From NCBI GenBank assembly GCA_965198225.1, contig CBDAOY010000009.1, forward strand, positions 768,001 through 832,000: 64,000 nt of DNA, written 5' to 3'. The notes beneath the pieces are model-generated. The model did not search any database, was not told the origin of the DNA, and was given only the letters and a program-made list of their open reading frames with translations. The stretch comes from Terriglobia bacterium. GTDB taxonomy: Bacteria; Acidobacteriota; Terriglobia; 20CM-2-55-15. Of the stretch, positions 1,394-63,958 are shown in pieces. The number at the start of each line of letters is the position of its first letter. The stretch's first letter is position 1. The position numbers were made by a program, and so were the translations under genes.

Positions 1394-1477
1394 AGGTCTA
1401 TTCAGATGGCTAGGAGTCTGCGCGGAAGAACGACTTTTTCATTGTGACCACAGCATAGGTCTATTCAGATGGCTAGG
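1394..1477 (+). repeat. 21-bp perfect direct repeat x2
   Basis: AGGTCTATTCAGATGGCTAGG at 1394-1414 and 1457-1477, 42 bp apart. Confidence 0.9.
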
Positions 1478-1488
1478 CGGTTATTCAA

Positions 1489-1540
1489 CCATGTGACTGT
1501 TTGATTGCGACCAACCCCCACCTTACGTAGTATTTACCGA
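1489..1540 (+). promoter_or_regulatory. Putative sigma70 promoter, paralogous to the one upstream of kinase 2
   Basis: CCATGTGACTGTTTGATTGC.ACCAACCCC...CGTAGTATTTA matches 10719-10770; TTGCGA-17 bp-TAGTAT. Confidence 0.55.
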
Positions 1541-1634
1541 GTTCTACAGGGATAGCTCAAGACATAAGAAATGGGGCACGATCAGGCGCTCAAGCGGTTA
1601 GACGCGCCGCCTGTTCGGGCGAAAGGAGAAGAAA

Positions 1635-1850
1635 ATGGCGGAAAGTGTTTACAAGGTTATCGAGCTGGTCGGGAGCAGTTCCGAATCATGGGACAAGGCA
1701 GCCGCAGCAGCCGTCGAGTTGGCCTCGGAGAGTCTGCGGGACTTGCGTGTCGCCGAGGTCTCGCAGTTGGATTTGCAACTGGAGGACGGCAAAGTTCGTG
1801 CCTACCGGGCCAGAGTGAAAGTCTCTTTCAAATACAAAGGTGGTGACTGA
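1635..1850 (+). CDS. Dodecin family flavin-binding protein
   Basis: 71 aa; VYKVIELVGSS..SW..A and YRARVKVSFK signature; AGGAG RBS. Confidence 0.92.
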   Translation: MAESVYKVIELVGSSSESWDKAAAAAVELASESLRDLRVAEVSQLDLQLEDGKVRAYRARVKVSFKYKGGD

Positions 1851-2067
1851 GCCGGTGAGCTCATAGGTCCAGGCGCCCGGGCAAAACTCGGCTCGGGCGC
1901 TGGGCCGGCCCGAAACGAGGTCATGTTTTTCGCAGGGCTTCTTACGACAGGCGGAGGTGAATCGTATGATGACACGCTACGACGCAATCGGCGGCACAGG
2001 ACACCGGCCTTAGCGAACTTTCCCATCTACTGAAACCTCTTCCAACTTCAGTTAAGCAAACCGCCCG

Positions 2068-2177
2068 AACCCACTTGGACGTATCGTCGCCAAACCGGTA
2101 ATGTGCATCGCGGTCGAAAGCTCGCGATTCTCGACGGTTCCACTTTTCCGTATCAGCGGCACATCCACGCGCGGATT
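2068..2177. repeat. Inverted pair of palindromic spacer sites
   Basis: 2068-2109 aacccacttggacgtat-cgtcgcc-aaaccggtaatgtgcat (+); 2138-2177 reads ...gccgct-gatacggaaaagtggaa on the minus strand; followed by GATTGACC. Confidence 0.65.
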
Positions 2178-2227
2178 GACCCGGGCATTTGAACAACAGT
2201 CAATGGCCTTCAGGGGTGTGCAGTGAA

Positions 2228-4672: not shown

Positions 4673-4859
4673 GATTATCTCTCCAGCAGAAGTATTCATT
4701 GCGAACTTGCTACAAGACCGGCTGGGCCTTCGGTTTTTAATTTCAAAAAGAATAAAAGAGATTTAGAGTTCATGCCACCCTGTAATACCTGAAGTTCTCC
4801 CTTATCTCATTGCGACGCACAACGCCGGCGGCGAACGTGACCGTATTCGAAGGGGGCGC

Positions 4860-5020
4860 GCAACATCTCTGTGTCGACTGGGAAGCCTTCCGTCGAACGA
4901 AAAAACGCCATTCATCAAGGATCACGACTCTCGCACGAATTCCACGGACGGCAGCCGGGCGGCACGGATAGATAGCCAAGACCGCGTTGTTTTGAAGTGT
5001 CAGCGTAGCTTTCAACCTAG
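4860..5020 (-). pseudogene. Fragment resembling a phage terminase large-subunit ATPase (Walker B region)
   Basis: TLTLQNNAVLAIYPCRPAAVRGIRARVVILDEW resembles the terminase RG...hhhDE motif; no complete gene. Confidence 0.5.
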
Positions 5021-5125
5021 GAGCCCATACAGGGCAGAGAGAAACACCAGCCACAGTCGCCACGTGCTCAAGTCACGGAAGGTAGGCAATGCGCCCAGGG
5101 CGCGATCGTTTCGCCAGACTGTTTC

Positions 5126-5275
5126 AATCCGCTCGGACGTATGGTCGCCATCACGTACATGTGAAAAAGACCGGCCATAGCCTCGGTCCGACTACAGGCA
5201 GATGGAAGAGTACGCGGTTACCCAGGATGTGACCTTCTGATTGACCTCAAGTTGCTAACGTAGTTTTATTTACGG
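5126..5275 (+). promoter_or_regulatory. Kinase upstream spacer module (palindromic site plus TGATTGACC promoter-like motif)
   Basis: aatccgctcggacgtat-ggtcgcc-atcacgtacatgtgaaa at 5126-5166; gatgtgaccttctgattgacctcaa...cgtagttttatt directly before the GTG start. Confidence 0.65.
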
Positions 5276-7972
5276 GTGATCCAACCCGGCCAGAACCTCG
5301 CACACTACGAAATACTCTCCCCGCTCGGCAAAGGCGGCATGGGGGAGGTGTGGAAGGCCAAGGACACAAAACTCGGACGTGAGGTCGCCATAAAGACGCT
5401 CCCCGAAGAGTTCGCCAAAGACGAAGAACGACTGGCCCGGTCTGAACGGGAGGCCAAGCTCCTGGCGTCGTTGAACCATCCCAACATCGCTGCGATCTAC
5501 GGTTTGGAAGAAGACAACGGCACCCGTTTCCTCGTCCTCGAACTGGTTGACGGAGACACGTTGGCGGAGCGATTGAAACGCGGTGCCATCCCAGTCGAAG
5601 AGTCGCTCAAACTCGGACTTCAAATCGCAGAAGCACTCGAAGCAGCACATGAAAAGGGCGTCATCCATCGTGATCTAAAACCGGCAAATATCAAGGTCAC
5701 ACCCGAGGGCAAGCTGAAGGTGCTGGACTTCGGGTTGGCGAAGGTGTTTGCGGAGGGCCAGGCTGATTTGAACCTGTCTCAGTCACCGACGTTGAGCATG
5801 GCCGTGACACAGCAAGGTGTGATCCTGGGGACAGCGGCGTACATGAGTCCCGAACAGGCACGGGGCAAGACTGTGGACACACGTGCGGACATCTGGGCCT
5901 TCGGGTGCGTGCTTTATGAGATGCTCACCGGCCGCCAGACGTGGGGCGGCGAAACCTTGACAGATATGATTGCTGCCGCCGTCGCGAAGGATCCCAACTG
6001 GAACGTTCTCCCTGTGGATCTCCATGCAAGAGTTCAAGAGCTACTCCGACGCTGTCTGGAGAAGGAAGCGAAGAACCGGTGGCAGGCTTCCGGGGATGTG
6101 CGGATTGAGATTGAACAGTTGTTGAGCAATCCAAACGGTCTGTTGGTGCAGCCGATTGCTCAAGTTGTCGAGGCAGCACTCCCGTCGAAACTGCCGTGGG
6201 TCGCGGCTGCAGTCGCCACGGTCGCCGCAATCGTGTTCGGTATTGCTTTGTGGCTTCCGTCGCAGCCGGAAGACCTACCGCTTGTGCGTCTGGATGTCGA
6301 CCTGGGGCAGGAGGTTTCACTGGGTGCAATCAACGGCCGCAGCGTCATCATGACTCCTGACGGGACGCGTATCGCGTATGTGGCCAGCGTCTCGGGCGGC
6401 CAGAGGCGGCTCTATACGCGGCGTCTCGATCAAGCCGACCCGACCGAACTCTCTGGAACCGACAGCGCCACCCTACCCTTCTTTTCTCCCGACGGAAAGT
6501 GGATTGGGTTCTTTGCCTCAGGCACGCTTAACAAGATTTCGGTGGAAGGCGGCGCGGTCGTTCCCCTGCGCGACGGGCCGTTTGCTGGAGGGAGCTGGGG
6601 AGAGGACGGAATCATCGTCTTCAGCCAGCCGCTCCCCGGGGGTCTCATGGCGATTCCCGAGGACGGGGGCGATGTCACGAGTCTGACGCCTCTGGATCAG
6701 GGAGAATTGGCCTTCGCCGAGCCGCAGATCCTGCCGGGTGGCCAGGCCGTATTGTTCTCGACCGCGGGATTCTCAGGCGGCGACCGCAATGTCGAGATCT
6801 TCTCTTTCGCTGACGGGGTTCGCAAGACCCTCGTCCGGGGAGCGACGAGCCCGGCGTATCTTCCCAGCGGCCATCTGGTGTACAACAGCGGCGGTACGCT
6901 GTTTGCCACACTGTTTGATCTGGACGCTCTGGAGACTCTTGGCTCCAGAGTGCCGGTTCTTGGTGACTTGGGAACTGATCCAAGCGGCGATACCTCGATG
7001 ACTTTCTCTCGAGACGGCGCCGTTGTGTACCGGAGCGGTGGTGAAGCGGCGGCGAAGTTCGCTCAGAGTACAGTCGAATGGCTCGACAGTGAAGGCAACC
7101 GCGACCCCCTGATCTCGACCGCCGGCGGATATCTGACCCCGCGGCTCTCACCGGACGCCGAGCAGGTGGTACTGACAACCATCGAAGGAAGCGACGTACG
7201 CGTATCGGTCTACGACCTCGAACGCGACAATATGACGCGATTGACGTTTGACGACGGCTTTTATTCCTCGCCCGTCTGGAGCCCCGACCAGCAAAACGTT
7301 GTTTTTGGGGCGATGGGAGTCGGTCTCCTCCAGGCGCGGGTGGACGGAGCCGGCCCACCCCAGCCGCTGTTGGAAACAAACGTAGCATTACTCCCGTTTT
7401 CATTCGCCCCTGACCAGCGACTGGCATATTTCGAGGCAGGTGAAGGAGGAGGCGACATTCGAACCGTAGCCGTGGAGGACAACGGCAATCGGTTGACGGC
7501 GGGTGAGCCCGAGGCGTTTCTAGCCACCCCTTTTAACGAGGCTCCAAACAGGTTTTCCCCCGACGGGCGGTGGCTGGCGTATCAATCGAACGAGTCGGGC
7601 CAGAACGAAGTGAGTGTGCGAGCCTTTCCGCCGCCGTCTTCGGGGGAAGGCGCTCGGTTTCCGATCTCTAACGGCGGTGGGTACTTTGCGGTATGGTCGC
7701 CCAACTCTCCTGAACTCTTCTACCGTTCCCTTGAAGACCAGATCATGGTCGTCGACTGGCGGGTGGAGGGCGACCGGTTCATCGCCGACCGGCCCCGCGT
7801 GTGGGCGGCAGACCCCGGCGGGCAGTTCTGGGACATGGCCCCGGACGGACGGGCATTGCTGACGGTCCGCGTAGAAACGGACGAAGCACAGGAAGAACCC
7901 GAGGCGGACCATCACGTCGTGTTCTTGGGGAACTTCTTCGACTATCTTCGCCGCGAAGTGCCGGTGCCTTAG
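5276..7972 (+). CDS. Receptor-type Ser/Thr protein kinase with TM and TolB-like (PD40) beta-propeller (kinase 1)
   Basis: GKGGMG, VAIK, HRDLKPAN, DFG, YMSPE; TM WVAAAVATVAAIVFGIALW; repeated FSPDG/WSPD motifs. Confidence 0.95.
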   Translation: MIQPGQNLAHYEILSPLGKGGMGEVWKAKDTKLGREVAIKTLPEEFAKDEERLARSEREAKLLASLNHPNIAAIYGLEEDNGTRFLVLELVDGDTLAERLKRGAIPVEESLKLGLQIAEALEAAHEKGVIHRDLKPANIKVTPEGKLKVLDFGLAKVFAEGQADLNLSQSPTLSMAVTQQGVILGTAAYMSPEQARGKTVDTRADIWAFGCVLYEMLTGRQTWGGETLTDMIAAAVAKDPNWNVLPVDLHARVQELLRRCLEKEAKNRWQASGDVRIEIEQLLSNPNGLLVQPIAQVVEAALPSKLPWVAAAVATVAAIVFGIALWLPSQPEDLPLVRLDVDLGQEVSLGAINGRSVIMTPDGTRIAYVASVSGGQRRLYTRRLDQADPTELSGTDSATLPFFSPDGKWIGFFASGTLNKISVEGGAVVPLRDGPFAGGSWGEDGIIVFSQPLPGGLMAIPEDGGDVTSLTPLDQGELAFAEPQILPGGQAVLFSTAGFSGGDRNVEIFSFADGVRKTLVRGATSPAYLPSGHLVYNSGGTLFATLFDLDALETLGSRVPVLGDLGTDPSGDTSMTFSRDGAVVYRSGGEAAAKFAQSTVEWLDSEGNRDPLISTAGGYLTPRLSPDAEQVVLTTIEGSDVRVSVYDLERDNMTRLTFDDGFYSSPVWSPDQQNVVFGAMGVGLLQARVDGAGPPQPLLETNVALLPFSFAPDQRLAYFEAGEGGGDIRTVAVEDNGNRLTAGEPEAFLATPFNEAPNRFSPDGRWLAYQSNESGQNEVSVRAFPPPSSGEGARFPISNGGGYFAVWSPNSPELFYRSLEDQIMVVDWRVEGDRFIADRPRVWAADPGGQFWDMAPDGRALLTVRVETDEAQEEPEADHHVVFLGNFFDYLRREVPVP

Positions 7973-8380
7973 GCTCTCCGTCTCGCTGGCCGAACTCCGA
8001 GCACGGTTGTAGGAATTCCACTTGGCCGTATGGTCGTTAGCGTTCATCGGAAGTGCCGCGGCGAGCGCGGCCACAGGATGAGCGAGAAGTTCCCACCGCG
8101 GCAGTTTCGATAACAAGACTTGAAGGAGGGCGCTGGCCGAATGCGGCGGACGCGGTGGGCTATGGAGAAAGTAGCCGGAAGCGGGCCGGATCTGGAGTGG
8201 CGTTGGGGCGAGGAGGGGGACCGGCGGTCGATGACCGCGTCGATGGTGTGAATCGGAAAGCAGTTGGGTCGGGGAATCGGTGGGTTGAAAGGACGGGATC
8301 TGAGGGGATTTTGCAGCGGAGGCACACTCCGGCGAGGACGTGGCTGAACCGCACGTCGGTCGTCGGTTTGTGAAGGAGGA

Positions 8381-9550
8381 TTAGGACGTATCGCATTGGA
8401 AGGCGAGCCTCGCTACGAGTTGCAGAGCGGTGAAGCGTTGGATGAGAGTCATCGGTCCCTGACAGTGCGGACACGACCAGGAAGAGTTCGAGGTGGTGGT
8501 TTCGTCAGATTCGACCCTCGGCATGGCATCGAGGAGTTGGCGACAGAGAGCGAAGGCGGCCGACCGGCGGTAGTTGGCCATGAATCCGAAGTGTCGGATG
8601 CGGACGAAGCCCTTCGGCAGAACGTGCAATAAGAACCGTCGGATGAACTCGTCGGCCGCGAGTGTCATGATGCGACTCTTGTTGCCATTGCGGTAATCCC
8701 GCCAACGGAACCGGACCCGGTTACCGTCAAACGAGATCAATCGATGGTTGGAGATGGCGACCCGATGGGTGTAGCGGCCCAGGTAGCGGAGCACCTGTTC
8801 GGGGCCACCAAAGGGTCGTTTGATATAGACGACCCAGTTGCGGGAATGGATCTGGCGGCGGAACCGCCGAAAGTGTTGCGGTTCGCCGAAGGGTCGAATC
8901 GAGCCGGACAGTTCGAGCGAACCGTCGGCGATCGCTCGCCCGAGCCCGTCGATGAACTTGCCACGGAAGACTCGGGCGAGCACCTGCTTGGGGAGGAAGA
9001 AGCGCCCAGAACCCGGAATCCAACGGGACTGATCCGGAGCCAGTCCGCCGGCCGGTACCACGCAGTGGATGTGGGGATGGAACTCCAGGTTCTGACTCCA
9101 GGTATGCAGGATGCCGAAGAAGCCGATCCGGGCGCCGAGTCGTTTCGGATTGGCCGCCACCTCGATCATCGTGTCGGCCACGCTGCGAAACAGCAGGCTG
9201 TAGAGTAGGGCAGGGTTGTGGAAGAAGAACGGATGGAACTGGTGCGGGACGGTGAACACGACGTGGAAGTAGGGGGTGGGCAGCAGTTCGGCTTCTCGTG
9301 CTTCGAGCCACCGTCGTCGGGCCTGGGTCTGACACTTCGGGCAGTGGCGGTTGCGGCAGGAGTTGAACGAGATTCCGGACTCCCGGCCACAATCGGCACA
9401 CCGGTCGATGTGGCCACCCAGAGCCGCAGTACGACAGTTCAGGATGGCGCGCAGGACCTTGAGCTTCTGGATGCCGAGGCGGTGACGCTGGAGGAAACCT
9501 CGAACCCGGGCGCGGACGATGTCGGCCACCTCGACGGCGGGCCGGCTCAT
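8381..9550 (-). CDS. IS91 family (HUH, Y2) transposase
   Basis: Cys-rich zinc-binding N-terminus (SCRNRHCPKC), HPHIH HUH motif, YLGRY; start overlaps the integrase stop (ATGA). Confidence 0.93.
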   Translation of the reverse strand: MSRPAVEVADIVRARVRGFLQRHRLGIQKLKVLRAILNCRTAALGGHIDRCADCGRESGISFNSCRNRHCPKCQTQARRRWLEAREAELLPTPYFHVVFTVPHQFHPFFFHNPALLYSLLFRSVADTMIEVAANPKRLGARIGFFGILHTWSQNLEFHPHIHCVVPAGGLAPDQSRWIPGSGRFFLPKQVLARVFRGKFIDGLGRAIADGSLELSGSIRPFGEPQHFRRFRRQIHSRNWVVYIKRPFGGPEQVLRYLGRYTHRVAISNHRLISFDGNRVRFRWRDYRNGNKSRIMTLAADEFIRRFLLHVLPKGFVRIRHFGFMANYRRSAAFALCRQLLDAMPRVESDETTTSNSSWSCPHCQGPMTLIQRFTALQLVARLAFQCDTS

Positions 9551-10437
9551 TCGCCTTTCTTCTTTCTCAGACGGGGAGACGGTCCCAGATCGGGAACCGG
9601 AAGAGAATCGATCGGGTTCACCACGCGCTGCATGTGCGCCTGAGACAAATGGAGATAGAGGGTCGTCGCTTCCAGATCGACATGACCCAACAGGAGCTGG
9701 ATGGTTCGCAGGTCGGTTCCCCTCTCCAGCAGGTGGGTGGCCCAGCTGTGGCGCAGCGTATGTGGGGATACTTTCTTTTTGATGCCGGCACGTTGGGCGG
9801 CTTGTTGGACGGCGTACCAAACCGTCTTCACATCGATGGGCTGTCCGGGCCGGGTCCGGAGCAAACTGGGGAAGAGGTACTCGCCGGGTTTCCGCCAACG
9901 CCAGTAGTCGCGCAGGACTTCCAGCAGTTTCGGTGACAGCGGCACGTCGCGGTCGCGATTGCCTTTACCCTGCCTCACATGGATCACCATGCGTTCGCTA
10001 TCGACGTCCTCGACCTTCAGACGACACAGCTCGGCCCGCCGCAGTCCCGTCGAATACAAGGTCATCAGGATGACGAAGTGATAGGCACTGTTGGCGGAGG
10101 CCAGCAGTTGCGCCACTTCCTCTTCGCTCAGAATCGTGGGCAACCGGGACGGCTGTTTCGGATAGACCAGATCGACCTGGTGATAGGGACGGCGAAGCAC
10201 CTTCACGTAGAAGAACCGGAGTGCGGCGATCCGTCCGATGATGGTGTCGACAGCGAGCTTGCGCTCCTGAAGCAGATGCAGCTGGTACTGCCGCATCTGT
10301 TCCTGTTCGAGCTTGTCGGGGGACTTCCCGAAGTAGCGGGCGAAGTCTTCGACCGCGTGAAGATACAGCCGAATCGTAGCGGGTGAGTAGTTCCGGCGCT
10401 GGAGTTCCTCCAGCATCCGTTGTCGCAGCTTCGTCAT
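9547..10437 (-). CDS. Tyrosine recombinase/integrase
   Basis: SAM-like N-terminus; GLRRAE, HTLRHSWATH, LLGH and TTLY catalytic motifs; GGAGG RBS. Confidence 0.95.
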   Translation of the reverse strand: MTKLRQRMLEELQRRNYSPATIRLYLHAVEDFARYFGKSPDKLEQEQMRQYQLHLLQERKLAVDTIIGRIAALRFFYVKVLRRPYHQVDLVYPKQPSRLPTILSEEEVAQLLASANSAYHFVILMTLYSTGLRRAELCRLKVEDVDSERMVIHVRQGKGNRDRDVPLSPKLLEVLRDYWRWRKPGEYLFPSLLRTRPGQPIDVKTVWYAVQQAAQRAGIKKKVSPHTLRHSWATHLLERGTDLRTIQLLLGHVDLEATTLYLHLSQAHMQRVVNPIDSLPVPDLGPSPRLRKKKGE

Positions 10438-10620
10438 GTGAGCCTCCTTGTGAGGCTCACACTCTATCGGGGGCTCATCACTCTTCGCTCAGCACACGCG
10501 TAGCGTCCGCCGCGCCAGCGGCTTCGTTCAAGTCGCCGATACGGAAAAGTGAATCGACCACGGCAAGATCGAGACGCTAGCGATACGCTTCTCGCCGATG
10601 TCTGATCGCAACAAGTGGGT

Positions 10621-10770
10621 CATCCACATTCCCTATCGTCGATACTTCCATGTAGATCTCGTCGAAAAGCCCCGTCTTACCTCGGTTTTTCCACTCTTCC
10701 GACCAGGCGGTGATACATCCATGTGACTGTTTGATTGCTACCAACCCCTTCCTGCCGTAGTATTTACGCA
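10621..10770 (+). promoter_or_regulatory. Spacer module: inverted palindrome pair plus promoter of kinase 2
   Basis: catccacattccctatcgtcgatacttccatgtagat (10621-10657); inverted copy at 10689-10727; TTGCTA-17 bp-TAGTAT. Confidence 0.6.
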
Positions 10771-10844: not shown

Positions 10845-13469
10845 GTGTCGCTCGCAGCAGGCACACGCCTGGGTCCATACGAAATCGCCGACCAACTCGG
10901 TGCGGGCGGTATGGGAGAGGTGTATCGCGCCACCGACACCCGCCTCGACCGAACTGTAGCCATCAAAGTCCTGCCTGAACACCTCGCCTCCGACCCGCAA
11001 CGTCGGGAGCGCTTCGAGCGTGAAGCCAAAGCCGTCAGCAGCCTGAACCACCCGCACATCTGCACGCTCCACGACATCGGCGAACAGGACGGCATCCACT
11101 ACCTCGTCATGGAGTTGGTGGAGGGCGAGACGCTCCAGCAACGCTTGGAGAAAGGACGCCTGCCGCTCGATCAGGCACTGGAATACGCCATCCAGATCGC
11201 CGACGCCCTGGACAAAGCCCACCGGCAGGGCGTGGTCCACCGGGATCTGAAACCCGGAAACATCATGATCACGAAGTCGGCCGGTGTGAAGCTGCTCGAC
11301 TTCGGGCTGGCAAAGTTGAAGGGCGATGCTGCTGAAGTCTCACCACTGTCCCAGATGCCCACCCAGGACCCATCAGCACCCCTCACAGCCGAAGGGACCA
11401 TCATCGGCACGCTCCAGTACATGGCTCCCGAGCAATTGGAGGGTAAGGAAGCCGATGCCCGGACGGACATCTTCGCGTTCGGTGCTGTCGTGTACGAGAT
11501 GATCACGGGCAAGAAAGCGTTTGAGGGAGCGAGTCAGGCGAGTTTGGTCGGCGCGATTATGAATCAACAGCCAGCGCCGGTCACCGAGGTTCAGCCCGTT
11601 TCGCCACCTATGCTCGATCACGTCATCACGGCATGTCTCGCCAAGAATCCTGAAGATCGCTGGCAAACCGGTACGGACCTCGGGCGTGAACTCAAGTGGA
11701 TCGACGAAGTCGGAGCCCAGAACGGAACCGTTGCCGTCGAAACCGGGCACGGCGGTCGGGAGCGGGTCGCGTGGGTCGCGGCTACTGCCGTCCTGTTGAT
11801 CGCTTTGCTCATTCTGGTCACCACGAGAGTTGAGCCCCCAGCTGGAGCACCCGAAGCGGTTCGCTTTGCACTTTCCTTGCCGCCCGAGACCGTTCCCACC
11901 TCGACCCGGATCTCTCCCGACGGCAGCCGTCTGGCATACATCGCGCCGCGGTCTGACGGTACGAAAGTCGTATGGGTCCGTGCTCTGGGTTCTGTGGAGG
12001 CTCAACCGCTCGCGGGCACGGAGGGTGCCGGCAGTCTTTTCTGGTCGTCGGACAGCGCCCGACTGGGTGTAAATGTTTTGGGGCAGTTGCAGTCAATCGA
12101 CCTTGCCGTGGGGTCTCCCCAGACGGTGCACGACGGCATCTTCTCCCATGGAATTTGGAACGGTGACGGCGTCATCGTCTTCCGTGATCAGACTCAAAGG
12201 CAAATGTACCGCGCTCGGTCTGGAGGCGGCGAAGTCACGCTGTTGGACGTGGGCAACGGACTGGGAATCCCCATGGACTTTCTGCCAGACGAGGATCACT
12301 TCCTCTATAGGGCGGGTCCTTCTGTCTACATTGGTTCGCTCGAATCCGGGGAATCAAGCTTCCTATTCGACAGCCCATCCCCCGTCCTGTACTCCGACGG
12401 CTACCTCCTGTTTGTCCGGGGTGGAGCGTTGATGGCGCAACGTTTCGATCCAATCCAACTGAAGGTGGATGGGGAACCACAAGTCATCGACCAGCAGGTG
12501 GTTTCCCCGGACGTCACCCGACGCTACGACACGGCGTTCTCCGTTTCGCAGGACGGGACGTTGGCTTTTCGGCCCGGGACGGGTGTGGATGGACAATTGG
12601 TCTGGTCCGATCGCACGGGAGGCGAACTGGGTCGGATACAACAGCCACAATCGGGCGAGTATGTGAATCCATCGATCTCGCCGGACGGTCGACAGATTGC
12701 CGTGAACCGCAAGGACCCGTCGTCCGGGAACGTGGATATCTGGTTGATCGACGCGGAACGGGGCAGTCCTGAACGCTTTACGACGGACCCATCCTTCGAT
12801 GGGGATGCAGTCTGGTCCCCAGACGGCCGTCGGATTGCATTTAGCTCGAACCGAAGCGCACGGTGGGGCATCTGGGTGAAGGACGTCGCCGGGGGGGATG
12901 CGGAGTTACTAACGGATGTAGGGGTCCGCCGAATCACGCACTGGTCGAAGGACGGGCAGTTCATTCTTTACGATCACACCAGTTCCGATCGCGATGGTGA
13001 CGTGTGGGTACTGCCGGTTTCCGGAGAAGAGGAGCCGTGGCCCCTGTTGGATTCCGAGTTCATCGAGTATGGAGCGCGTTTCTCGCCGGACGGGAGTTGG
13101 GTTGCCTACAACTCCACCGAAACGGGCAAGTATGAAGTCCATGTCGCGAGCTTCCCGGGTGGCCGGGACAGACAACGTATCTCGCCTGGCGGAGGGGTTC
13201 ACCCGAGGTGGCAGGGCGATGGCAGCCGGCTGTTCTACGACAGCAGGAGTTTCGTGATGAGTGTCGCCATGGAAGTCGATTCTTCCGGACTTCAGATCGG
13301 TGTCTCTGAAGTGGCCATCGAGCCAAGGATCATGTTCTTAAGTGACAGTCGGAACCATTACGCAGTCACTCCTGACGGCGAGCGCCTCCTGTTGCGACGA
13401 CCAAGCCTCGATCCCCCACCGACCACCATCATCACCAACTGGACCTCCCTCCTCGAAGAAAACCAATGA
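10845..13469 (+). CDS. Receptor-type Ser/Thr kinase with TM and PD40 beta-propeller (kinase 2)
   Basis: GAGGMG, HRDLKPGN, DFG, YMAPE; TM segment; SPDG repeats; GGAGG RBS. Confidence 0.95.
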   Translation: MSLAAGTRLGPYEIADQLGAGGMGEVYRATDTRLDRTVAIKVLPEHLASDPQRRERFEREAKAVSSLNHPHICTLHDIGEQDGIHYLVMELVEGETLQQRLEKGRLPLDQALEYAIQIADALDKAHRQGVVHRDLKPGNIMITKSAGVKLLDFGLAKLKGDAAEVSPLSQMPTQDPSAPLTAEGTIIGTLQYMAPEQLEGKEADARTDIFAFGAVVYEMITGKKAFEGASQASLVGAIMNQQPAPVTEVQPVSPPMLDHVITACLAKNPEDRWQTGTDLGRELKWIDEVGAQNGTVAVETGHGGRERVAWVAATAVLLIALLILVTTRVEPPAGAPEAVRFALSLPPETVPTSTRISPDGSRLAYIAPRSDGTKVVWVRALGSVEAQPLAGTEGAGSLFWSSDSARLGVNVLGQLQSIDLAVGSPQTVHDGIFSHGIWNGDGVIVFRDQTQRQMYRARSGGGEVTLLDVGNGLGIPMDFLPDEDHFLYRAGPSVYIGSLESGESSFLFDSPSPVLYSDGYLLFVRGGALMAQRFDPIQLKVDGEPQVIDQQVVSPDVTRRYDTAFSVSQDGTLAFRPGTGVDGQLVWSDRTGGELGRIQQPQSGEYVNPSISPDGRQIAVNRKDPSSGNVDIWLIDAERGSPERFTTDPSFDGDAVWSPDGRRIAFSSNRSARWGIWVKDVAGGDAELLTDVGVRRITHWSKDGQFILYDHTSSDRDGDVWVLPVSGEEEPWPLLDSEFIEYGARFSPDGSWVAYNSTETGKYEVHVASFPGGRDRQRISPGGGVHPRWQGDGSRLFYDSRSFVMSVAMEVDSSGLQIGVSEVAIEPRIMFLSDSRNHYAVTPDGERLLLRRPSLDPPPTTIITNWTSLLEENQ

Positions 13470-16135
13470 CCCCCGGCAGCCAACTCGGCAGCTACGAGAT
13501 CCTGTCCCCGCTCGGAAAGGGCGGTATGGGCGAGGTGTGGCGTGCTCGGGACTCGAAGCTCGGACGCGAAGTCGCCATCAAGACGTTGCCTGAAGAGTTC
13601 GCTCAAGACGAAGAACGTCTGGCTCGGTTTGAGCGTGAAGCAAAGCTGCTGGCGTCGTTGAACCATCCGAACATCGCAGCCATCTACGGTCTGGAAGAAC
13701 ACAACGGCACGCGGTTCCTCGTCCTCGAACTGGTTGAAGGTGACACGCTAGCGGATCGGCTGAAGCACGGTGCCATTCCGGTTGAAGAATCCCTCAAGCT
13801 CGCCCTCCAGATTGCTGAAGCCCTTGAGGCCGCGCACGAGAAGGGCGTCATTCACCGCGATCTCAAGCCGTTGAACATCAAGGTCACTCCCGAGGGCAAG
13901 GTGAAGGTGCTGGACTTCGGGCTGGCCAAGGCGTTCATGGGCGACGGGGAGGATGTGAATCTGTCGCAGTCACCGACGCTGAGTATGCAGGCAACCGCGC
14001 AGGGAGTGATTCTTGGCACCGCCGCGTACATGTCGCCTGAGCAGGCGCGTGGCGTAACGGTAGACAAGAGGGCCGACATCTGGGCGTTCGGGTGTGTCCT
14101 GTACGAGATGCTCACGGGCCGCCAGGTGTTCAAGGGTGAGTTGATGTCGGATGTAATGGCGTCGGTATTGAAGTCCGACCCCGACTACAAGGGTTTACCG
14201 CCTGCAATTCATCCGCAACTACGAGCGGTCTTGCGACGATGTCTGGAGAAGGAACCGAAGCAGCGGTGGCATGACGTTGGCGATGTGCGGATCGAGCTGG
14301 AGCAGGTATCAGCAGACCCGAGCGGGACGCTGGTCGTCCAGCCCGTTGCCGAGACGCTTGCAACGCAATCGAAACTGCCGTGGGTCGCTGCGATGGTTGT
14401 AGTGGCTTTCATCGCCGGCATAGCCGCCTGGACCCTGAAACCAGTCCCGCCACCCGACCCCCGGCCGGTGAGTCGCCACAGGCACGACCTCCCCGAGGGG
14501 ATCGATACCGGTGTGAACACCATCGCCGTGTCACCGGACGGCCAATACTATGTCTACAAGGGCACGGATGCACTCTACCTGCGATCCAGGAACGAACTGG
14601 AAGCCCTCGTGATCGCAGGAACCGAAGGTAATGTGTACAACCCGTTTTTCTCCCACGACAGCCAGTCGGTGGGTTTCTGGAACCGGGAGGGCCGGATCGA
14701 AAAGATCGCCATCAGCGGCGGCACGCCGATTCCGATCGGCCCTGCCCCCCAGAATCCACAAGGAATCAGCTGGGGGGCGGACGACATCGTTCTCTTTTCC
14801 CAACGCGACGGGATCTATAGCGTCTCGGCCAACGGCGGCACGCCAGATCGGATCATTGAGGCCCGGGACGGTGAACGGTTGAGCAGCCCCACGGTCCTGC
14901 CCAGCTGGCGGGAAATCCTGTTCACCTCACACCCCCCCGGTGTTCGGTGGGACAACGCCGAAATCGTCGTCGCGTCGTTGGACGCAACCGAGGATCGAAC
15001 GGTGGTGTGGAACGGAAGCGCGGCCAGCTACGCACCGACCGGACATTTGATCTACGCCCTGGGCAATGACCTGTTTGCGATCGCATTTGATCCAGACACG
15101 CTGGAAACTTCCGGGACAGCGGTGTCATTAGAACAGGGACTGGCGAGGGCGACATTCGGTGGTGATAGTGCGAACTACGGTATATCTGAGGACGGTTCGC
15201 TGGTGTACCGGGCGGACCCTGGGCCAATTCAACAGCGAGTCCTGGTATGGGTGGACGCCGAAGGCAACGAGACGCCGGTGGGCGCGCCGATTGATGATTA
15301 CCGTCATACCTCGGTTTCCCCGGACGGGAGTCGCGTGGCTCTGACGATCAACGATGGCACACAGAGTGACATCTATGTCTGGAACTTCGCCCGCCAGACC
15401 CCGACCCGGTTGACGTTCGATGAAGCAGACGACGGCCGTCCGATTTGGACGCCGGATAGTGATCAGATCATCTTCCGATCTCTGCGGGACGGTTCAGGCA
15501 ACATTTACCGCAGACGCGCCGACGGAACCGGAACCGTGGAACAACTCACCGAAGGCACCCTCAACAAGGTTCCTCGATCCTTGTCGTCGGACGGGGCGAC
15601 TCTGGCGTTCCACCAAACCGGCGGGCCCGCGGCGAATGACATTCTGATGCTGGACCTCGGTTCAGGCACGTCCGGTGAAGCAAACCGAGAACCTGTGATG
15701 TGGTTGCAGACGGAGTTCGGCGAGGCGGATCCGATGATTTCTCCCGATGGACAATGGGTCGCCTACAATTCCATTGAGTCGGGACGCAACGAGATCCATG
15801 TACGGCCGTTTGCCGATGCGGGTCAATGGCAGGTTTCGAGGGCCGGGGGCGGCAACCCCCTGTGGTCGCCCGACGGCCAGTGGCTGTACTACCGTTCTCC
15901 CCCTACCGGAGGCATCAACCAGATGATGCGGGTCGCCATTGACGCGGATACGGCGTTTGAGTTCGGCAACCCGGAACCCCTGTTTGACTATCCCATCTCT
16001 GGTGCGGGGATCTCACCCGATGGCCGCTTCCTGCTGATGAGGGATGTCGAAGTCGAAACCGAACCCTTCCGCCCCCACATCATCACCGTCCTGAACTGGT
16101 TCGAAGAACTGAAGGAACGGGTGCCGGTGCCTTAA
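13466..16135 (+). CDS. Receptor-type Ser/Thr kinase with TM and PD40 beta-propeller (kinase 3)
   Basis: Full set of kinase motifs; ATGA-coupled to kinase 2; ends VLNWFEELKERVPVP. Confidence 0.95.
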   Translation: MTPGSQLGSYEILSPLGKGGMGEVWRARDSKLGREVAIKTLPEEFAQDEERLARFEREAKLLASLNHPNIAAIYGLEEHNGTRFLVLELVEGDTLADRLKHGAIPVEESLKLALQIAEALEAAHEKGVIHRDLKPLNIKVTPEGKVKVLDFGLAKAFMGDGEDVNLSQSPTLSMQATAQGVILGTAAYMSPEQARGVTVDKRADIWAFGCVLYEMLTGRQVFKGELMSDVMASVLKSDPDYKGLPPAIHPQLRAVLRRCLEKEPKQRWHDVGDVRIELEQVSADPSGTLVVQPVAETLATQSKLPWVAAMVVVAFIAGIAAWTLKPVPPPDPRPVSRHRHDLPEGIDTGVNTIAVSPDGQYYVYKGTDALYLRSRNELEALVIAGTEGNVYNPFFSHDSQSVGFWNREGRIEKIAISGGTPIPIGPAPQNPQGISWGADDIVLFSQRDGIYSVSANGGTPDRIIEARDGERLSSPTVLPSWREILFTSHPPGVRWDNAEIVVASLDATEDRTVVWNGSAASYAPTGHLIYALGNDLFAIAFDPDTLETSGTAVSLEQGLARATFGGDSANYGISEDGSLVYRADPGPIQQRVLVWVDAEGNETPVGAPIDDYRHTSVSPDGSRVALTINDGTQSDIYVWNFARQTPTRLTFDEADDGRPIWTPDSDQIIFRSLRDGSGNIYRRRADGTGTVEQLTEGTLNKVPRSLSSDGATLAFHQTGGPAANDILMLDLGSGTSGEANREPVMWLQTEFGEADPMISPDGQWVAYNSIESGRNEIHVRPFADAGQWQVSRAGGGNPLWSPDGQWLYYRSPPTGGINQMMRVAIDADTAFEFGNPEPLFDYPISGAGISPDGRFLLMRDVEVETEPFRPHIITVLNWFEELKERVPVP

Positions 16136-16150: not shown

Positions 16151-16187
16151 ACTCCAACTCCCGATAAGCCTTCTCGGAGATGTGGAT
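16151..16187 (+). repeat. Palindromic spacer site (unoccupied)
   Basis: actccaactcccgata-agcctt-ctcggagatgtggat, 15 bp after the kinase 3 stop. Confidence 0.55.
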
Positions 16188-17335: not shown

Positions 17336-17340
17336 GACGT

Positions 17341-48622: not shown

Positions 48623-49509
48623 TCGCCTTTCTTCTTTCTCAGACGGGGAGACGGTCCCAGATCGGGAACCGGAAGAGAATCGATCGGGTTCACCACGCGC
48701 TGCATGTGCGCCTGAGACAAATGGAGATAGAGGGTCGTCGCTTCCAGATCGACATGACCCAACAGGAGCTGGATGGTTCGCAGGTCGGTTCCCCTCTCCA
48801 GCAGGTGGGTGGCCCAGCTGTGGCGCAGCGTATGTGGGGATACTTTCTTTTTGATGCCGGCACGTTGGGCGGCTTGTTGGACGGCGTACCAAACCGTCTT
48901 CACATCGATGGGCTGTCCGGGCCGGGTCCGGAGCAAACTGGGGAAGAGGTACTCGCCGGGTTTCCGCCAACGCCAGTAGTCGCGCAGGACTTCCAGCAGT
49001 TTCGGTGACAGCGGCACGTCGCGGTCGCGATTGCCTTTACCCTGCCTCACATGGATCACCATGCGTTCGCTATCGACGTCCTCGACCTTCAGACGACACA
49101 GCTCGGCCCGCCGCAGTCCCGTCGAATACAAGGTCATCAGGATGACGAAGTGATAGGCACTGTTGGCGGAGGCCAGCAGTTGCGCCACTTCCTCTTCGCT
49201 CAGAATCGTGGGCAACCGGGACGGCTGTTTCGGATAGACCAGATCGACCTGGTGATAGGGACGGCGAAGCACCTTCACGTAGAAGAACCGGAGTGCGGCG
49301 ATCCGTCCGATGATGGTGTCGACAGCGAGCTTGCGCTCCTGAAGCAGATGCAGCTGGTACTGCCGCATCTGTTCCTGTTCGAGCTTGTCGGGGGACTTCC
49401 CGAAGTAGCGGGCGAAGTCTTCGACCGCGTGAAGATACAGCCGAATCGTAGCGGGTGAGTAGTTCCGGCGCTGGAGTTCCTCCAGCATCCGTTGTCGCAG
49501 CTTCGTCAT
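48619..49509 (-). CDS. Tyrosine recombinase/integrase
   Basis: Translation identical to copy 1. Confidence 0.95.
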   Translation of the reverse strand: MTKLRQRMLEELQRRNYSPATIRLYLHAVEDFARYFGKSPDKLEQEQMRQYQLHLLQERKLAVDTIIGRIAALRFFYVKVLRRPYHQVDLVYPKQPSRLPTILSEEEVAQLLASANSAYHFVILMTLYSTGLRRAELCRLKVEDVDSERMVIHVRQGKGNRDRDVPLSPKLLEVLRDYWRWRKPGEYLFPSLLRTRPGQPIDVKTVWYAVQQAAQRAGIKKKVSPHTLRHSWATHLLERGTDLRTIQLLLGHVDLEATTLYLHLSQAHMQRVVNPIDSLPVPDLGPSPRLRKKKGE

Positions 49510-49824
49510 GTGAGCCTCCTTGTGAGGCTCACACTCTATCGGGGGCTCATCACTCTTCGCTCAGCACACGCGTAGCGTCCGCCGCGCCAGCGGCTTCGTT
49601 CAAGTCGCCTATGCTCCCATGTGGATCTTGCCAGAAAGGCCCCATTTCAGGCGGTTTCCAGTTTTCCGTATCGGAGGTCTATGAGGACCTGCTTCTGTTG
49701 TTGCTTCCAAACTTCCCACCTAGATAGACTTACCAGAATTTCGTAACCGGGTAAGACGCCTCGCGACCTAGGATCACACTGGAGGTCCGGCCGGAAAAGG
49801 TCGAGGGCCGGCGCATAAGGCACC

Positions 49825-61130: not shown

Positions 61131-61202
61131 GGCGCTGCCGCAAGGGCTGTCTGGTTCACGTTTCTAGGTTTTCAGTTACTGGACAGGGTAAGAGGAGGTT
61201 TG

Positions 61203-61412
61203 ATGGCGTTTTGCGCGATATGCGGAAGAGATCATCCGGTTGGACCCTGCGCTGGCAACCCTATCGAACCTCCGCTCGGTTCTCGTGGAAAACTGAAGCG
61301 CAGTTTTGATCCCGAGTTTGCAAGGACTGTCAGGAAGAAGGAAAGGCTTTTGCTGCTGGCCGGGCTGGCAGTGATCGCCTTGGCAATAGCCGTGATTGCT
61401 CTGATTACGTGA
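61203..61412 (+). CDS. Small membrane protein with a putative zinc knuckle
   Basis: CAICGRDH...C plus C-terminal TM; GAGGAGG RBS. Confidence 0.55.
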   Translation: MAFCAICGRDHPVGPCAGNPIEPPLGSRGKLKRSFDPEFARTVRKKERLLLLAGLAVIALAIAVIALIT

Positions 61413-61533
61413 GTTGAGTCTCGCCCCAACAAAGGACTCTCAACACTCCAGAAATCTTGTCGCCGAACTTCTGAAAGCGCACCCGGGACTCTAAGTGCGC
61501 GAGATCGCGATCAGGCCCGAGGAGTCCGCCAAG

Positions 61534-61923
61534 CTATATACCGCCGGCAGCCTCAGACAGGGGATCGGCTAGGGCAAGGATGTGATTCTGCTGCTCGTGA
61601 GTGATCGGCACCCTCACTCGAAAGTTGGTCACGCCCGACAAGTGTTTTCGACACAATTCGAGGTAAGGCTGCGATGCTCCGCAGTTGACTGTGATGACCA
61701 TAGCCACCGATCCGCCCTGCAGGATCGCAGCACCATCATATCGGGTGACGTCCGCAACCGGGTCGCGATGCCGGGTCAGCCTGCCTACCGTGATGCGGTC
61801 ACGACCGACCTCGATGTGCAGTTGAGGGGGATCGCTGGAGTCTTCGCGACGAACGGTGACGACAGGGTCGCTACCGACGACGCATGCGGCTGACGATGAG
61901 ATCAACGGAGTATGAGTAATCAT
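61534..61923 (-). CDS. Hypothetical protein coupled to the TPR gene
   Basis: ATG overlaps the TPR stop (ATGA at 61923-61920). Confidence 0.45.
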   Translation of the reverse strand: MITHTPLISSSAACVVGSDPVVTVRREDSSDPPQLHIEVGRDRITVGRLTRHRDPVADVTRYDGAAILQGGSVAMVITVNCGASQPYLELCRKHLSGVTNFRVRVPITHEQQNHILALADPLSEAAGGI

Positions 61924-63710
61924 GTTCCTTTGAAGGATTGGCTCGAATACCGGCAGGATAGTCTCCATTCGGCAATCTTTTGGCACGCACGCAAACTGCG
62001 CAATGTAGTCTTCGCAATGTAGTCTTCCAGGGCCCGCTTCAGGAGGGTATGTTCGCCGCGCTTTTCCCTCTTGGCGCCGGCTGCCAGTGACTCGCCACGG
62101 AACCGCATGGCCTCGGCAACGTACTGTCTGGCCTCTTCATCCCGCAATGTTTCGTCCGGACTCATGATCCTGCAGAGAGCCAGTGCGATGTAGGCCTTCG
62201 AGAGATCATCGAGAGCCTCCGTGTACGTTGGTTTCTGAGACAGCGCAAGCCGGTAATACCGGATCGAACGACGTAGTCGCTTGATTGCGCGTCGAGAGTG
62301 GGTATGTCTCGCATACACCACCTCTACGTTCCCAAGGTTGTCATACGCATGCTGATACGACGGGTCACTACGGATCGACTTCTTGATGTATCTTCGGGCG
62401 CTCCGCAGATCGGCGTAGGCAGCCGCAGAGTCAGTGGTCTTTGCCGCTCGATTCAGGTAAAGGTACCCCAGGTTGTTATACGCCACGGTGAACTCCCGAT
62501 TAAGCCTGGTCGCTTCCACGTAGAGTTCGATGGCACGATTTTCGTACGCGAGTCGCTCTCGTTCGTTGTCTGCCAGGTCGGCACGATTCTCTGCCTGCAC
62601 TTGGTTGGCGTAGGCGAGGGCTTTCACGACCGACGCCCGGGCTCGAGCCGGCGCAAACCGTCGGTGGATGCGCGCCCCAAGCGACCGTATCCTTGCGACA
62701 AACTTCCCTATCACGACCGGCGCCTCCGCCCCGAACTCGGTCTCGTACGCCCGTTGGGCACAGTGAAGCGCCTGCACGAGGGTGTCGTCGTTTCCTTGCT
62801 TGTGGCGTTGCCGCTCCTGACAAAACGCGTTGGCCAGCCCGCCGAACGCCTGTGCCCTGAGGGCCACGTCCGCTGACTGGCACTTCACCGCTGCCTGGAA
62901 AGCGGAGATTGCGGCCCTATTGGCCTTGGGCTCGTACTGTGTATAGAGAATGACTGCCTTGTTGAACAGCGATGCCGCGTTCGACGGGTCCTCTTCGAGT
63001 ACCTGATCGTATTGATCGATCGCGGCATTCGCCTGGTCCCGAGCCCGTCCGGTCTCCCAGGTGAGGTGACGCTCCAGCGCTTCGGTGAAGTCCGCGAAGC
63101 TCTCGGTGGACCTGAAGGTTTCGACGCCGGCCAGGTTGAGAAACACCTCGTGCGCAAACAGTCTAACGTAGCTGGGATACCGTTCGGGATTGTGAACGGG
63201 CCGGTCGAAAGACACCATGATGATCGGCCGCACACCGATCCACGGCTTGCGTGCGTTCTCGACGGCGATTTGTAACCGCAGCCTGCTCCCGAACCGATGA
63301 ATGCTTCCCCGCACGGTCGCCGCGGGCGCAAACAGTGGCAAAACACCGATGGCTTTGACGAACCATCCGGGACCGCCGAGTCGTTCCAGGTGACGAATCG
63401 CGGTGGGAAGTCCGTCGCTACTTCGCTCGAGAAAAGGAAGCTTCACGCGATCGTTCCAGAGCCCGGGATTCCGGTAAGCGGCCTCGTGGATCTTTCGCAC
63501 GCGCTCGATCTCGGCTACAAATATTTCGGACAGGCTCGCGCCGATGTCGAGGTTGTGATCGGTGGAGAGGTTTTCCCACGGCAGGAAGTACAGGCGGCGT
63601 CGAACGTGCCATCCAAACCATCCACCCACGAGGACGAGCAGACCAGCGAACGGCCAGGCTGGAATCGCCTGGATCACCTCGATCACTTCGACAAAACTTG
63701 ACACCGGCAA
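61920..63710 (-). CDS. Membrane-anchored tetratricopeptide-repeat protein
   Basis: N-terminal TM; AYNNLGYLY, AYDNLGNV and SLFNKA TPR motifs. Confidence 0.8.
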   Translation of the reverse strand: MPVSSFVEVIEVIQAIPAWPFAGLLVLVGGWFGWHVRRRLYFLPWENLSTDHNLDIGASLSEIFVAEIERVRKIHEAAYRNPGLWNDRVKLPFLERSSDGLPTAIRHLERLGGPGWFVKAIGVLPLFAPAATVRGSIHRFGSRLRLQIAVENARKPWIGVRPIIMVSFDRPVHNPERYPSYVRLFAHEVFLNLAGVETFRSTESFADFTEALERHLTWETGRARDQANAAIDQYDQVLEEDPSNAASLFNKAVILYTQYEPKANRAAISAFQAAVKCQSADVALRAQAFGGLANAFCQERQRHKQGNDDTLVQALHCAQRAYETEFGAEAPVVIGKFVARIRSLGARIHRRFAPARARASVVKALAYANQVQAENRADLADNERERLAYENRAIELYVEATRLNREFTVAYNNLGYLYLNRAAKTTDSAAAYADLRSARRYIKKSIRSDPSYQHAYDNLGNVEVVYARHTHSRRAIKRLRRSIRYYRLALSQKPTYTEALDDLSKAYIALALCRIMSPDETLRDEEARQYVAEAMRFRGESLAAGAKREKRGEHTLLKRALEDYIAKTTLRSLRACQKIAEWRLSCRYSSQSFKGT

Positions 63711-63864
63711 TGATACCTCGCTCCGTCTCTTGTTACTCGACCACCCTTTCGACTTCCGCTGGCAATGCCCTGCTCTTGGACACGTTACCGCCCGTGACGT
63801 GGCAGCCGCGAATCAGCCCGAGCCGCGAATCATGGCTGTCGGCCGCGAAGGATGACGGTGCCTT

Positions 63865-63958
63865 GCAGGTGCGAGCCGGGCGCCTTATGGAACTCGGCCA
63901 TTCCACGGGCGCCAATCTGATCGACGATCTCGGTTGGGCCGAAGCGTATCCCCGGTCT
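63865..63958 (-). pseudogene. Degenerate kinase 5'-head remnant
   Basis: Minus strand RPGIRFGPTEIVDQIGARGMAEFHKA versus kinase 2 AGTRLGPYEIADQLGAGGMGEVYRA. Confidence 0.75.

Follow-up and report, generated by a model that had tools for sequence, protein, structure and literature searches.

In a 64,000-nucleotide (nt) stretch of the genome of a Terriglobia bacterium (hereafter the window; C9:768001-832000 of the source genome, G000), whole genes of unrelated function stand between the extreme 5′ and 3′ ends of serine/threonine (Ser/Thr) kinase genes, which raises the question of how they came to occupy the place of the kinase body. A preliminary description of the window had interpreted this arrangement as a dedicated gene-capture platform, with the spacer between kinase genes as its specific site and breakpoint. 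Our analysis of the window, of G000 as a whole (6.4 Mb, 60% GC, 9 contigs), and of its relatives G002, G003, G012, and G015, the last two of which belong to other genera, largely confirmed the observation that kinase ends frame cargo genes. The locus is probably a plasticity zone, shaped by decay of the kinase family, reuse of its promoter, an active IS91-type insertion sequence (IS), and general recombination.

The four intact kinases of the preliminary description, here called K1 to K4, were recovered as open frames at or near the positions given for them (Table 1). A Pkinase domain followed by a PD40 propeller of the TolB type was detected in K1 and K2 by Pfam and in K3 by model matches, and the stop codon TGA of K2 shares bases with the start codon ATG of K3. 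A tblastn search of G000 with K3 as the query returned 158 high-scoring segment pairs, and a 2.66-kb whole-gene DNA profile revealed 46 full-length-like kinase loci together with dozens of partial loci, many of the kinase loci being arranged as head-to-tail arrays. The stop codon overlaps the next start codon as ATGA in 16 of 31 full-length genes (17 if one doubtful case is counted; judged by eye), and the tail codons are almost invariant among the full-length paralogues. Large groups of Ser/Thr kinase paralogues have also been described in Candidatus Solibacter usitatus, along with 123 mobile-element genes, integrases and transposases among them, that fall into groups of 97-100% identity (PMC3174227, in excerpt). 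The two cases are alike as Acidobacteria with expanded kinase paralogues and near-identical mobile elements, whereas kinase end stumps, gene frames, and an IS target site do not appear in the excerpted part of that account. Kinase arrays or stumps of G000 adjoin transfer RNA (tRNA) genes at several sites (C6:7900, C6:142377, C7:932451, C8:126419, and C9:700694).

An orphan kinase 5′ end is termed a head here and an orphan kinase 3′ end a tail. The head profile was built from the first 135 nt and the tail profile from the last 81 nt of the 31 full-length paralogues, and both were used in nhmmer searches. The heads proposed at 19518 and 25630 were supported by the profile, whereas that at 63958 on the minus strand was marginal. 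Among the proposed tails, those at 18012, 29258, and 37439 were found by profile, that at 22830 lay about 25 nt off, at 22855, and that at 21043 was recognized only as a member of repeat family D11. Pfam bore out the cargo between them, namely the dipeptidase, the ThuA-domain protein, and the three-gene lipid operon, and placed a Pkinase domain in the kinase fragment ahead of the ThuA gene; the decayed head and kinase domain of this pseudogene follow tail 21039 at once. Frames had been thought to span the window as far as 63958, but none was found from about 30 kb to 64 kb except tail 37434 and the marginal head 63954, and about half of the window is without kinase frames. Just ahead of tail 17995, a 287-aa open reading frame (ORF; 17092-17955), which stops 40 nt before it, matched subclass B3 metallo-beta-lactamase models at 136 bits against a cutoff of 240 over residues 93-280, and window 17376-17974 is 94.7% identical to G002.

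The bias toward the ends of the gene holds across the genome. Among isolated fragments of at most 310 nt in G000, the whole-gene profile found 19 N-terminal and 8 C-terminal ones, and about 11 more tails were detected by the tail profile alone, against only 1-3 family-specific internal fragments; most of the 88 "internal" profile matches lie at positions 1800-2450 and were read as generic PD40 repeats of other proteins. In a detection control with intact 90-nt segments of the 31 genes, which is generous because the same genes had trained the profile, detection was complete (100%) over the first 360 nt, 94-96% from there to nt 720, and 26-82% elsewhere, with 74% for the last segment. Since internal segments were thus detectable (26-96%), the excess of terminal fragments does not come from search bias alone, and it is real. 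Internal fragments as frequent as terminal ones, named beforehand as the outcome that would contradict the preliminary description, were therefore not what we observed. Its further argument, which takes the survival of both termini to be unexpected under random decay, fails. Because many genes of an array abut, as the ATGA overlaps indicate, an insertion lands inside a kinase gene; a single internal replacement then keeps both ends, while an isolated internal fragment needs two events, so that the terminal bias needs no cassette machinery.

A conserved motif, TTGACC-N17-T(C/T)TTAT, ends 6-8 nt before the GTG or ATG start codon, without a Shine-Dalgarno sequence. From its conservation and position we infer that this upstream motif is a candidate promoter, and the sequence suggests that leaderless messenger RNAs are likely for the first genes of kinase arrays. 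Near the left edge of the window, 1493-1566 is 80% like a stretch upstream of a kinase head in G002. Heads break off at about nt 75-135 in about 10 cases and at about nt 155-265 in about 7-8, and longer N-terminal fragments are numerous in G000. At C4:62233 and C6:641692 the motif is followed by just about 30 nt of head, and at C5:162281, C6:306568, C6:327408, and C6:827592 by no head at all, other genes lying directly behind it. Tails are between 33 and about 480 nt long. The stumps grade continuously in length, without a fixed junction. Orphan heads carry stop codons and indels, and the stumps show the disabling changes, the variable truncation, and the faster divergence than adjoining functional DNA that mark pseudogene remnants; part of the divergence gap between stump and cargo stems from recombination. 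A surrogate IS termination or target sequence (GAAGTCGCC in the VAIK codons) was considered as a common end point of heads and rejected, as heads 19515 and 25630 continue through ATCAAG and others end elsewhere.

The spacer between kinase genes has its own explanation. The repeating unit consists of a tail, about 45-60 nt, an imperfect inverted repeat of about 40 bp, about 50-60 nt, TTGACC-N17-TCTTAT, and a start codon. The inverted repeat has outer arms of 6-9 bp and GTCG at its centre, and intact sites have a single GTCG. In the window, three inverted repeats are split by a full 2.5-kb IS91-family element and a fourth abuts a truncated copy. This element at the GTCG centre of the spacer had been missed by the preliminary description, whose order of parts is correct in outline; its "palindrome and inverted palindrome" make up a single inverted repeat, of which each is one arm. 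Folding of the inverted repeats was no better than that of shuffled sequences (z-scores of −0.3 to −1.3), and a role as a stable hairpin or terminator was rejected, since shuffles fold as well.

The IS encodes a 296-aa tyrosine recombinase and a 505-aa Y2 transposase, the latter matching Pfam Y2_Tnp at 211 bits, Zn_Tnp_IS91 at 105 bits, and NF033538 at 431 bits against a cutoff of 125. G000 holds 10 left and 7 right IS ends and 7 complete copies, the copies being 98.9-100% identical, and the recombinase gene is present in all 7 complete copies and in some truncated ones. GTCG abuts all 10 left ends, and all 7 right ends finish in GTCG, one per side, an arrangement that by sequence alone is indistinguishable from a 4-bp duplication. 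An arm related to the inverted repeat, judged by eye, is visible in 10 of 10 left flanks. Just outside the element, the 20-25 nt at one end form an inverted repeat with those at the other, and their sequence varies among copies; as the arms vary in this way, they belong to the target and not to the IS. A hairpin at the tnpA-distal end (−13.2 kcal/mol) had a z-score of −2.0, with 5 of 200 shuffles equally good, and the other end has a 5-bp stem (z-score −1.4). An 85%-identical IS occupies 9 loci in G002, 5 of them within such inverted repeats, and some of these G002 copies immediately precede a kinase upstream motif and head. Of 24 related loci, which come from several phyla, including Verrucomicrobiota and Anaerolineales, 21 retain the recombinase gene together with the transposase gene. 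The element is apparently an active member of the IS91 family with an exact target at the palindrome centre. A diverged relative (70-82% identity) lies at C6:643616-644952, where it adjoins the module of head, ORF, and tail at C6:641900-643006.

The IS resembles the IS91/ISCR family in its Y2 HUH transposase, which scores above the NCBIfam equivalog cutoff, in the same tetranucleotide beside its tnpA-downstream end and at its other terminus, and perhaps in subterminal hairpins near its ends. In the excerpted part of PMC13181058, the family is described as having a tetranucleotide target beside one end, as producing no duplication, and as carrying adjoining DNA when termination fails, and the GTCG ends and neighbouring-DNA features fit the family as described there. 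The present element differs in that a tyrosine recombinase gene lies upstream of the transposase, where IS91 itself has orf121, in that its tetranucleotide is GTCG and not CTTG, GTTC, or GTCC, and in that it strongly favours the centre of the inverted repeat. ISfinder includes an IS91 subgroup that has an integrase-like ORF, although no passage was found to confirm this; a literature search on IS91 elements with an integrase gene returned nothing, and we make no claim that such elements are undescribed. IS1397 and ISKpn1 are reportedly palindrome-targeting insertion sequences. Insertion sequences that target palindromes of the repetitive extragenic palindrome (REP) and bacterial interspersed mosaic element (BIME) types are treated in PMC3333891, as excerpted. 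The likeness lies in insertion at a fixed position within a repeated intergenic palindrome; here, however, the element is of the IS91 family and carries a recombinase, and the repeat, with about 26 matches, makes up a small family tied to kinase arrays, not a genome-wide REP.

As the preliminary description would predict, cargo order changes between relatives. Blocks of the window are scattered to separate places in G002, G003, G012, and G015: window 30140-30932 corresponds to G002 at 1.13 Mb (95%) and G003 at 2.53 Mb (97%), window 31146-36839 to G002 at 0.44 Mb and G003 at 0.68 Mb (95%), and window 37734-43824 to G002 at 5.05 Mb (95-98%), while for the genes at 50-61 kb, beside IS copy 4, the matches in G002 and G003 (86-90%) have another arrangement. 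The spacer did not prove to be the breakpoint, as high-identity cargo blocks mostly end between stump and cargo. The ThuA region (22495-22810) is 97% identical to a fragment in G002. The dipeptidase region (19891-20999) is 89.7% identical to G003 over that span only, and no head, tail, or inverted repeat lies within about 9 kb of the G003 homologue. In G002, the homologue of block 31146-36839 has a tail ahead of it and abuts an IS fragment, and the homologue of the SBP gene 37781-39706 has a whole kinase upstream; tail 37434 may be a remnant of the counterpart of that kinase. At 30139/30140, the truncated IS is fused to a truncated DUF885 gene, whose remnant covers the C-terminal part (profile positions 365-530 of 532) and has no other copy of at least 85% identity in G000.

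How the plasticity zone would have formed can be outlined as follows. Translationally coupled kinase arrays would leave almost no intergenic DNA, and foreign genes would consequently land within kinase genes. The dead kinase body would be removed by deletion, which would halt at parts that are still needed, namely the promoter that drives co-oriented cargo and the translation-coupling or 3′-end region, so that head and tail remain. The IS may contribute insertions and truncations as well as repeats at which rearrangement can occur, moving by rolling-circle transposition if it resembles IS91 in its behaviour, and RecA-type recombination among the similar heads and tails of about 50 paralogues may reshuffle the frames. 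The largest ORF behind an orphan head is co-oriented with it in 13 of 17 cases (18 heads, one without an ORF), and the ORF ahead of an orphan tail in 14 of 19, which fits reuse of the kinase promoter by cargo.

Several points weigh against this explanation. The orientation counts use crude ORF calls in a genome of 60% GC, a simple sigma-70 consensus scan at 4700-5400 found no promoter-like site, and the close comparison covered parts of each of 5 relatives. More heads end within the first 10% of the gene than uniform random breakpoints predict, and the decay account needs selection or repeated deletion, which we infer. Most orphan stumps have no IS nearby, so the IS accounts for only part of the junctions. 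Finally, in both of the two comparable modules the same cargo stands in different kinase frames, which fits frame-based exchange at least as well as passive decay.

Such exchange is a possible, if rather doubtful, explanation of the frames themselves. The promoter-bearing head and the tail would serve as portable homology arms, through which cargo moves among the roughly 50 kinase loci, and also between genera, by RecA-type recombination. That the palindrome-targeting IS91/Xer-like element supplies breaks or single-stranded copies beside the frames is an extension that we regard as equally tentative. At the DNA level, the gene is most easily recognized by its first 360 nt (all 90-nt segments, against 74% for the last), and the near-invariance of the tail codons points the same way. 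The lipid module gave further support. Over 25587-29284, with its upstream motif and tail included, the module shows 93% identity to its counterparts in G012 and G015, which lie in other surroundings, and it is partly present in G002. Compared with G012, 3135 of 3329 positions are identical in the three cargo genes, 94 of 103 and 36 of 38 in the non-coding gaps beside them, 105 of 126 in the head, 37 of 50 in the upstream motif, and 30 of 37 in the tail. Identity thus steps down from the cargo (about 94%) to the head (83% in G012, 71% in G015) and the upstream motif (74% and 66%). The 5′ 79 nt of the head agree with the modules of G012, G015, and G002 at 61, 47, and 58 positions, and the 5′ part is closer to the paralogue C6_320290 of the same genome (65 of 73); the 3′ 57 nt (52, 50, and 47 of 57) go with the cargo. 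Judging from these alignments, the head of the lipid module is chimeric. Half-site scars of the inverted repeat or of IS ends at the lipid-cargo junctions, suspected by eye at 25715-25760 and 29215-29250, were rejected, as the kinase alignment shows degenerate head and tail instead.

The second module, with an FGE-sulfatase-domain gene (C6:633.6-635.8k), is 92% identical to G003, where it also lies between head and tail, of a different subtype and length. On the evidence of these alignments, kinase ends do recombine. Gene conversion of stumps by intact paralogues, however, would yield the same chimeric pattern with no platform role, and the two cases do not decide between this and module exchange. 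The arms are short (tails of 33-75 nt) and about 80-90% identical, so recombination between them would be inefficient; the dipeptidase lacks a frame in G003, and the first entry of cargo into a frame is left unexplained. The module of head, 262-aa ORF, and tail at C6:641900-643006 matched no Pfam family, and no match at E≤1e-80 was found in 20 relatives. At Rhs and contact-dependent inhibition (CDI) toxin loci, displaced "orphan" ends occur, and what is swapped there is a homologous toxin tip together with its immunity gene. The kinase frames are similar in that conserved gene segments would act as homology for swapping a variable part, with orphan pieces left behind, but here unrelated whole genes replace the kinase body and both ends stay.

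One-ended rolling-circle transposition, in which the IS would carry along its flank (right repeat half, upstream motif, and more or less of a head), is unlikely to be the main source of orphan heads and translocated cargo. Termination of IS91-family transposition fails in 1-14% of events and moves neighbouring DNA (PMC13181058, in excerpt), the heads lie on the IS side upstream of its genes, and IS copies 2 and 4 share about 67 nt past their common end. A unit of about 470 nt occurs three times at 97% identity (C9:766819-767288, C6:341539-342010, and C6:632820-633291); it starts at an IS right flank, ends just past a 76-nt orphan tail, contains sequence like the IS left end, and stands beside the IS once and without it twice, and could be a flank moved by read-through transposition. 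On the other hand, heads beside different IS copies are unlike each other, heads do not stop at GTCG-like surrogate sites, most orphan heads have no IS nearby, and the tails, on the other side of the IS, are not accounted for.

A site-specific cassette system, in which the recombinase of the IS or the host Xer system would recombine the inverted repeats and thereby excise or insert segments, is very unlikely. The recombinase passes the cutoff of NF040815 ("site-specific tyrosine recombinase/integron integrase") narrowly, at 223 bits against 220, but falls below those of the integron-integrase models TIGR02249 (203 against 265) and NF011946 (135 against 435). The inverted repeat is used repeatedly, as the arms at the left junctions attest, the lipid module lies between inverted repeats in both G000 and G012, and one synteny break between G000 and G002 coincides with a repeat, near C6:341451. 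Even so, the tetranucleotide at both IS junctions is as expected of an IS91-type transposase and not of a crossover between two like sites, and high-identity cargo blocks end near stumps, not at repeats. A tail lies no more than 160 nt upstream of only 8 of the 26 non-overlapping repeat matches (E<0.01); the remaining 18 include right halves that adjoin an IS, and the copies are poorly conserved as well as unremarkable in folding. Public-run contigs over 19000-29330, which as assembled contigs are silent on rare forms, gave no empty site and no circle joint in 15 of 25 joints, and paralogous kinases or the IS copy at 29333 account for the joints listed there. The spacer is specific as the target of an IS that encodes an Xer/IntI-like recombinase, and not as a cassette boundary. 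The variable junctions, the decaying stumps, the frameless dipeptidase of G003, and the location of the recombinase inside a multi-copy IS all speak against a dedicated gene-capture platform.

Comparison with known cassette systems leads to the same distinction. The window shares with integrons an Xer/IntI-like recombinase, recurrent imperfect inverted repeats close to units of gene size, and cargo that points the same way as a candidate promoter ahead of it. Unlike in integrons, the recombinase is not an IntI-type integrase by the two models above; its gene is carried by a multi-copy IS, whereas an integron has a single integrase gene, with attI and a promoter, ahead of its array of attC-bounded, promoterless cassettes. 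In addition, the units are not bounded by repeats, each having its own stump with a candidate promoter and variable junctions. The pdif modules of Acinetobacter plasmids are separated by short dif-like sites of 28 bp with an XerC-spacer-XerD layout (11-6-11). Short inverted-repeat sites between gene modules that differ in order among relatives are common to both, whereas the repeat here is longer, at about 40 bp, degenerate, and without the 11-6-11 XerC/XerD layout, the modules are not consistently bounded by it, and an IS uses it as a target.

That the window is a mosaic mis-joined across the repeated kinase and IS sequences of a metagenome is extremely improbable, although the genome is repeat-rich and in 9 contigs and a near relative is labelled a metagenome-assembled genome. 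One public-run contig covers 19000-23023 without differences, taking in the head, the dipeptidase, a tail, the kinase fragment, ThuA, a second tail, and the edge of the IS. In two further runs, from other studies, most of this stretch is covered, in one by two pieces that leave a gap of 45 nt and in the other by separate pieces; one of the runs may be the source sample. Modules of the same kinds are also present in G002 and G003, each a single-contig genome, and in G012. As one contig spans 19000-23023 and the two further runs cover most of it, we read the arrangement as no assembly error.

Further features were seen in the window. Block 31269-36723, which is 95% identical in G002 and G003, encodes a DUF1592/DUF1588/DUF1587/DUF1585/DUF1595 protein, a DUF1552 protein, and a 540-aa ankyrin-repeat protein, and its first two genes have many paralogous pairs of 65-70% identity in relatives. 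An element of about 276 nt resembling a miniature inverted-repeat transposable element, with terminal inverted repeats of 30-32 nt that are 88-97% complementary, occurs at 16336-16611 and 39709-39979; at least 5 more copies (91-93%) were found in G000 and dozens in G001, G002, G003, and G012, and the copy at 39709-39980 is missing from the otherwise contiguous G002 homologue. A tRNA scan and an Rfam scan detected no tRNA genes and no Rfam families in the window. The 43 nt at 37652-37694 are 97.7% identical to the 3′ end of the tRNA-Gly(CCC) gene at C8:126419-126491 and look like an attachment-site remnant of an integrative element.

Table 1. Kinase genes, kinase ends, upstream motifs, inverted repeats, IS copies, and cargo in the window.
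Feature	Position	Strand	Evidence
Weak upstream-motif copy with no head behind it; possibly a promoter-only remnant	1491-1540	+	motif profile, E 0.03
Intact inverted repeat (empty IS target) upstream of K1	5126-5166	.	sequence
Upstream motif, TTGACC-N17-TTTTAT, ending about 8 nt before the K1 GTG start	5226-5275	+	repeat family D16, motif profile
K1, intact kinase, 898 aa, Pkinase and PD40/TolB propeller	5276-7972	+	open frame, Pfam
IS copy 1, GTCG at both ends, in inverted repeat 60 nt past K1	8033-10535	-	repeat, Pfam
IS91 Y2 transposase gene of IS copy 1	8381-9898	-	Y2_Tnp and Zn_Tnp_IS91
Tyrosine recombinase gene of IS copy 1	9547-10437	-	Phage_integrase
Intact inverted repeat upstream of K2	10622-10657	.	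sequence
K2, intact kinase, 874 aa, Pkinase and PD40	10845-13469	+	open frame, Pfam
K3, intact kinase, 889 aa, C-terminus ...NWFEELKERVPVP, then stop	13466-16135	+	open frame; kinase and TolB-propeller model matches
Intact inverted repeat after K3	16151-16188	.	sequence
Orphan tail of the ...FFEELKRLVPTDN-stop type, just past the B3 metallo-beta-lactamase-like ORF	17995-18064	+	tail profile, E 1e-6
Upstream motif of head 19515	19467-19514	+	conservation
Upstream motif and orphan head, about 40 first codons up to the VAIK codons	19467-19640	+	profile 19521-19637, E 2e-27; by eye head 19515-19640
Cargo: M19 membrane dipeptidase	19900-20994	+	Pfam
Orphan tail, 37 nt	21039-21075	+	76%-identical member of repeat family D11; under profile threshold
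Kinase pseudogene, decayed head and kinase domain, ending near profile nt 700 and directly before the ThuA start	21082-21960	+	Pkinase in 21154-21960, profile positions 19-204 of 263
Cargo: ThuA-domain protein	21961-22782	+	Pfam
Orphan tail, 75 nt	22855-22929	+	tail profile, E 4e-15
IS copy 2, tail 22855 on one side and head 25630 on the other	22996-25498	-	repeat
Upstream motif of head 25630	25580-25629	+	conservation
Upstream motif and orphan head with in-frame TAG	25580-25755	+	profile 25636-25721, E 2e-13; alignment extends to about 25755
Cargo: lipid module, operon of methyltransferase, NTP-transferase plus aminotransferase, and CDP-alcohol phosphatidyltransferase	25859-29214	+	Pfam
Orphan tail, about 37 nt	29253-29290	+	profile 29256-29290, E 9e-4
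IS copy 3, truncated to 788 nt, joined to 5′-truncated DUF885 gene (30143-30919)	29352-30139	-	repeat
Orphan tail, downstream homology to the K3 3′ flank	37434-37472	+	tail profile, E 8e-4
Intact inverted repeat after tail 37434	37492-37531	.	sequence
Upstream motif of K4	44236-44285	+	conservation
K4, intact kinase, 901 aa, unusual C-terminus	44286-46991	+	open frame; tblastn and DNA profile only
IS copy 4, about 110 nt past K4, followed by degenerate upstream motif and head	47105-49607	-	repeat
Marginal head-like stretch	63954-63860	-	head profile only, E 7e-3

The IS is of interest in its own right, as an IS91-family element that combines an Xer/IntI-like recombinase gene with an exact palindrome-centre target and has two-gene relatives in several phyla. 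If cargo were exchanged through homology arms, cassettes would be swapped by means of the homology that a gene family supplies, with no dedicated recombinase, a way of sharing genes unlike that of integrons. If the locus is the plasticity zone that we consider probable, coupled tandem arrays would act as landing pads, dead kinase bodies would be trimmed to their regulatory ends, and the promoter of the family would be reused by unrelated genes, so that a very large paralogue family would shape genome plasticity in soil Acidobacteria.

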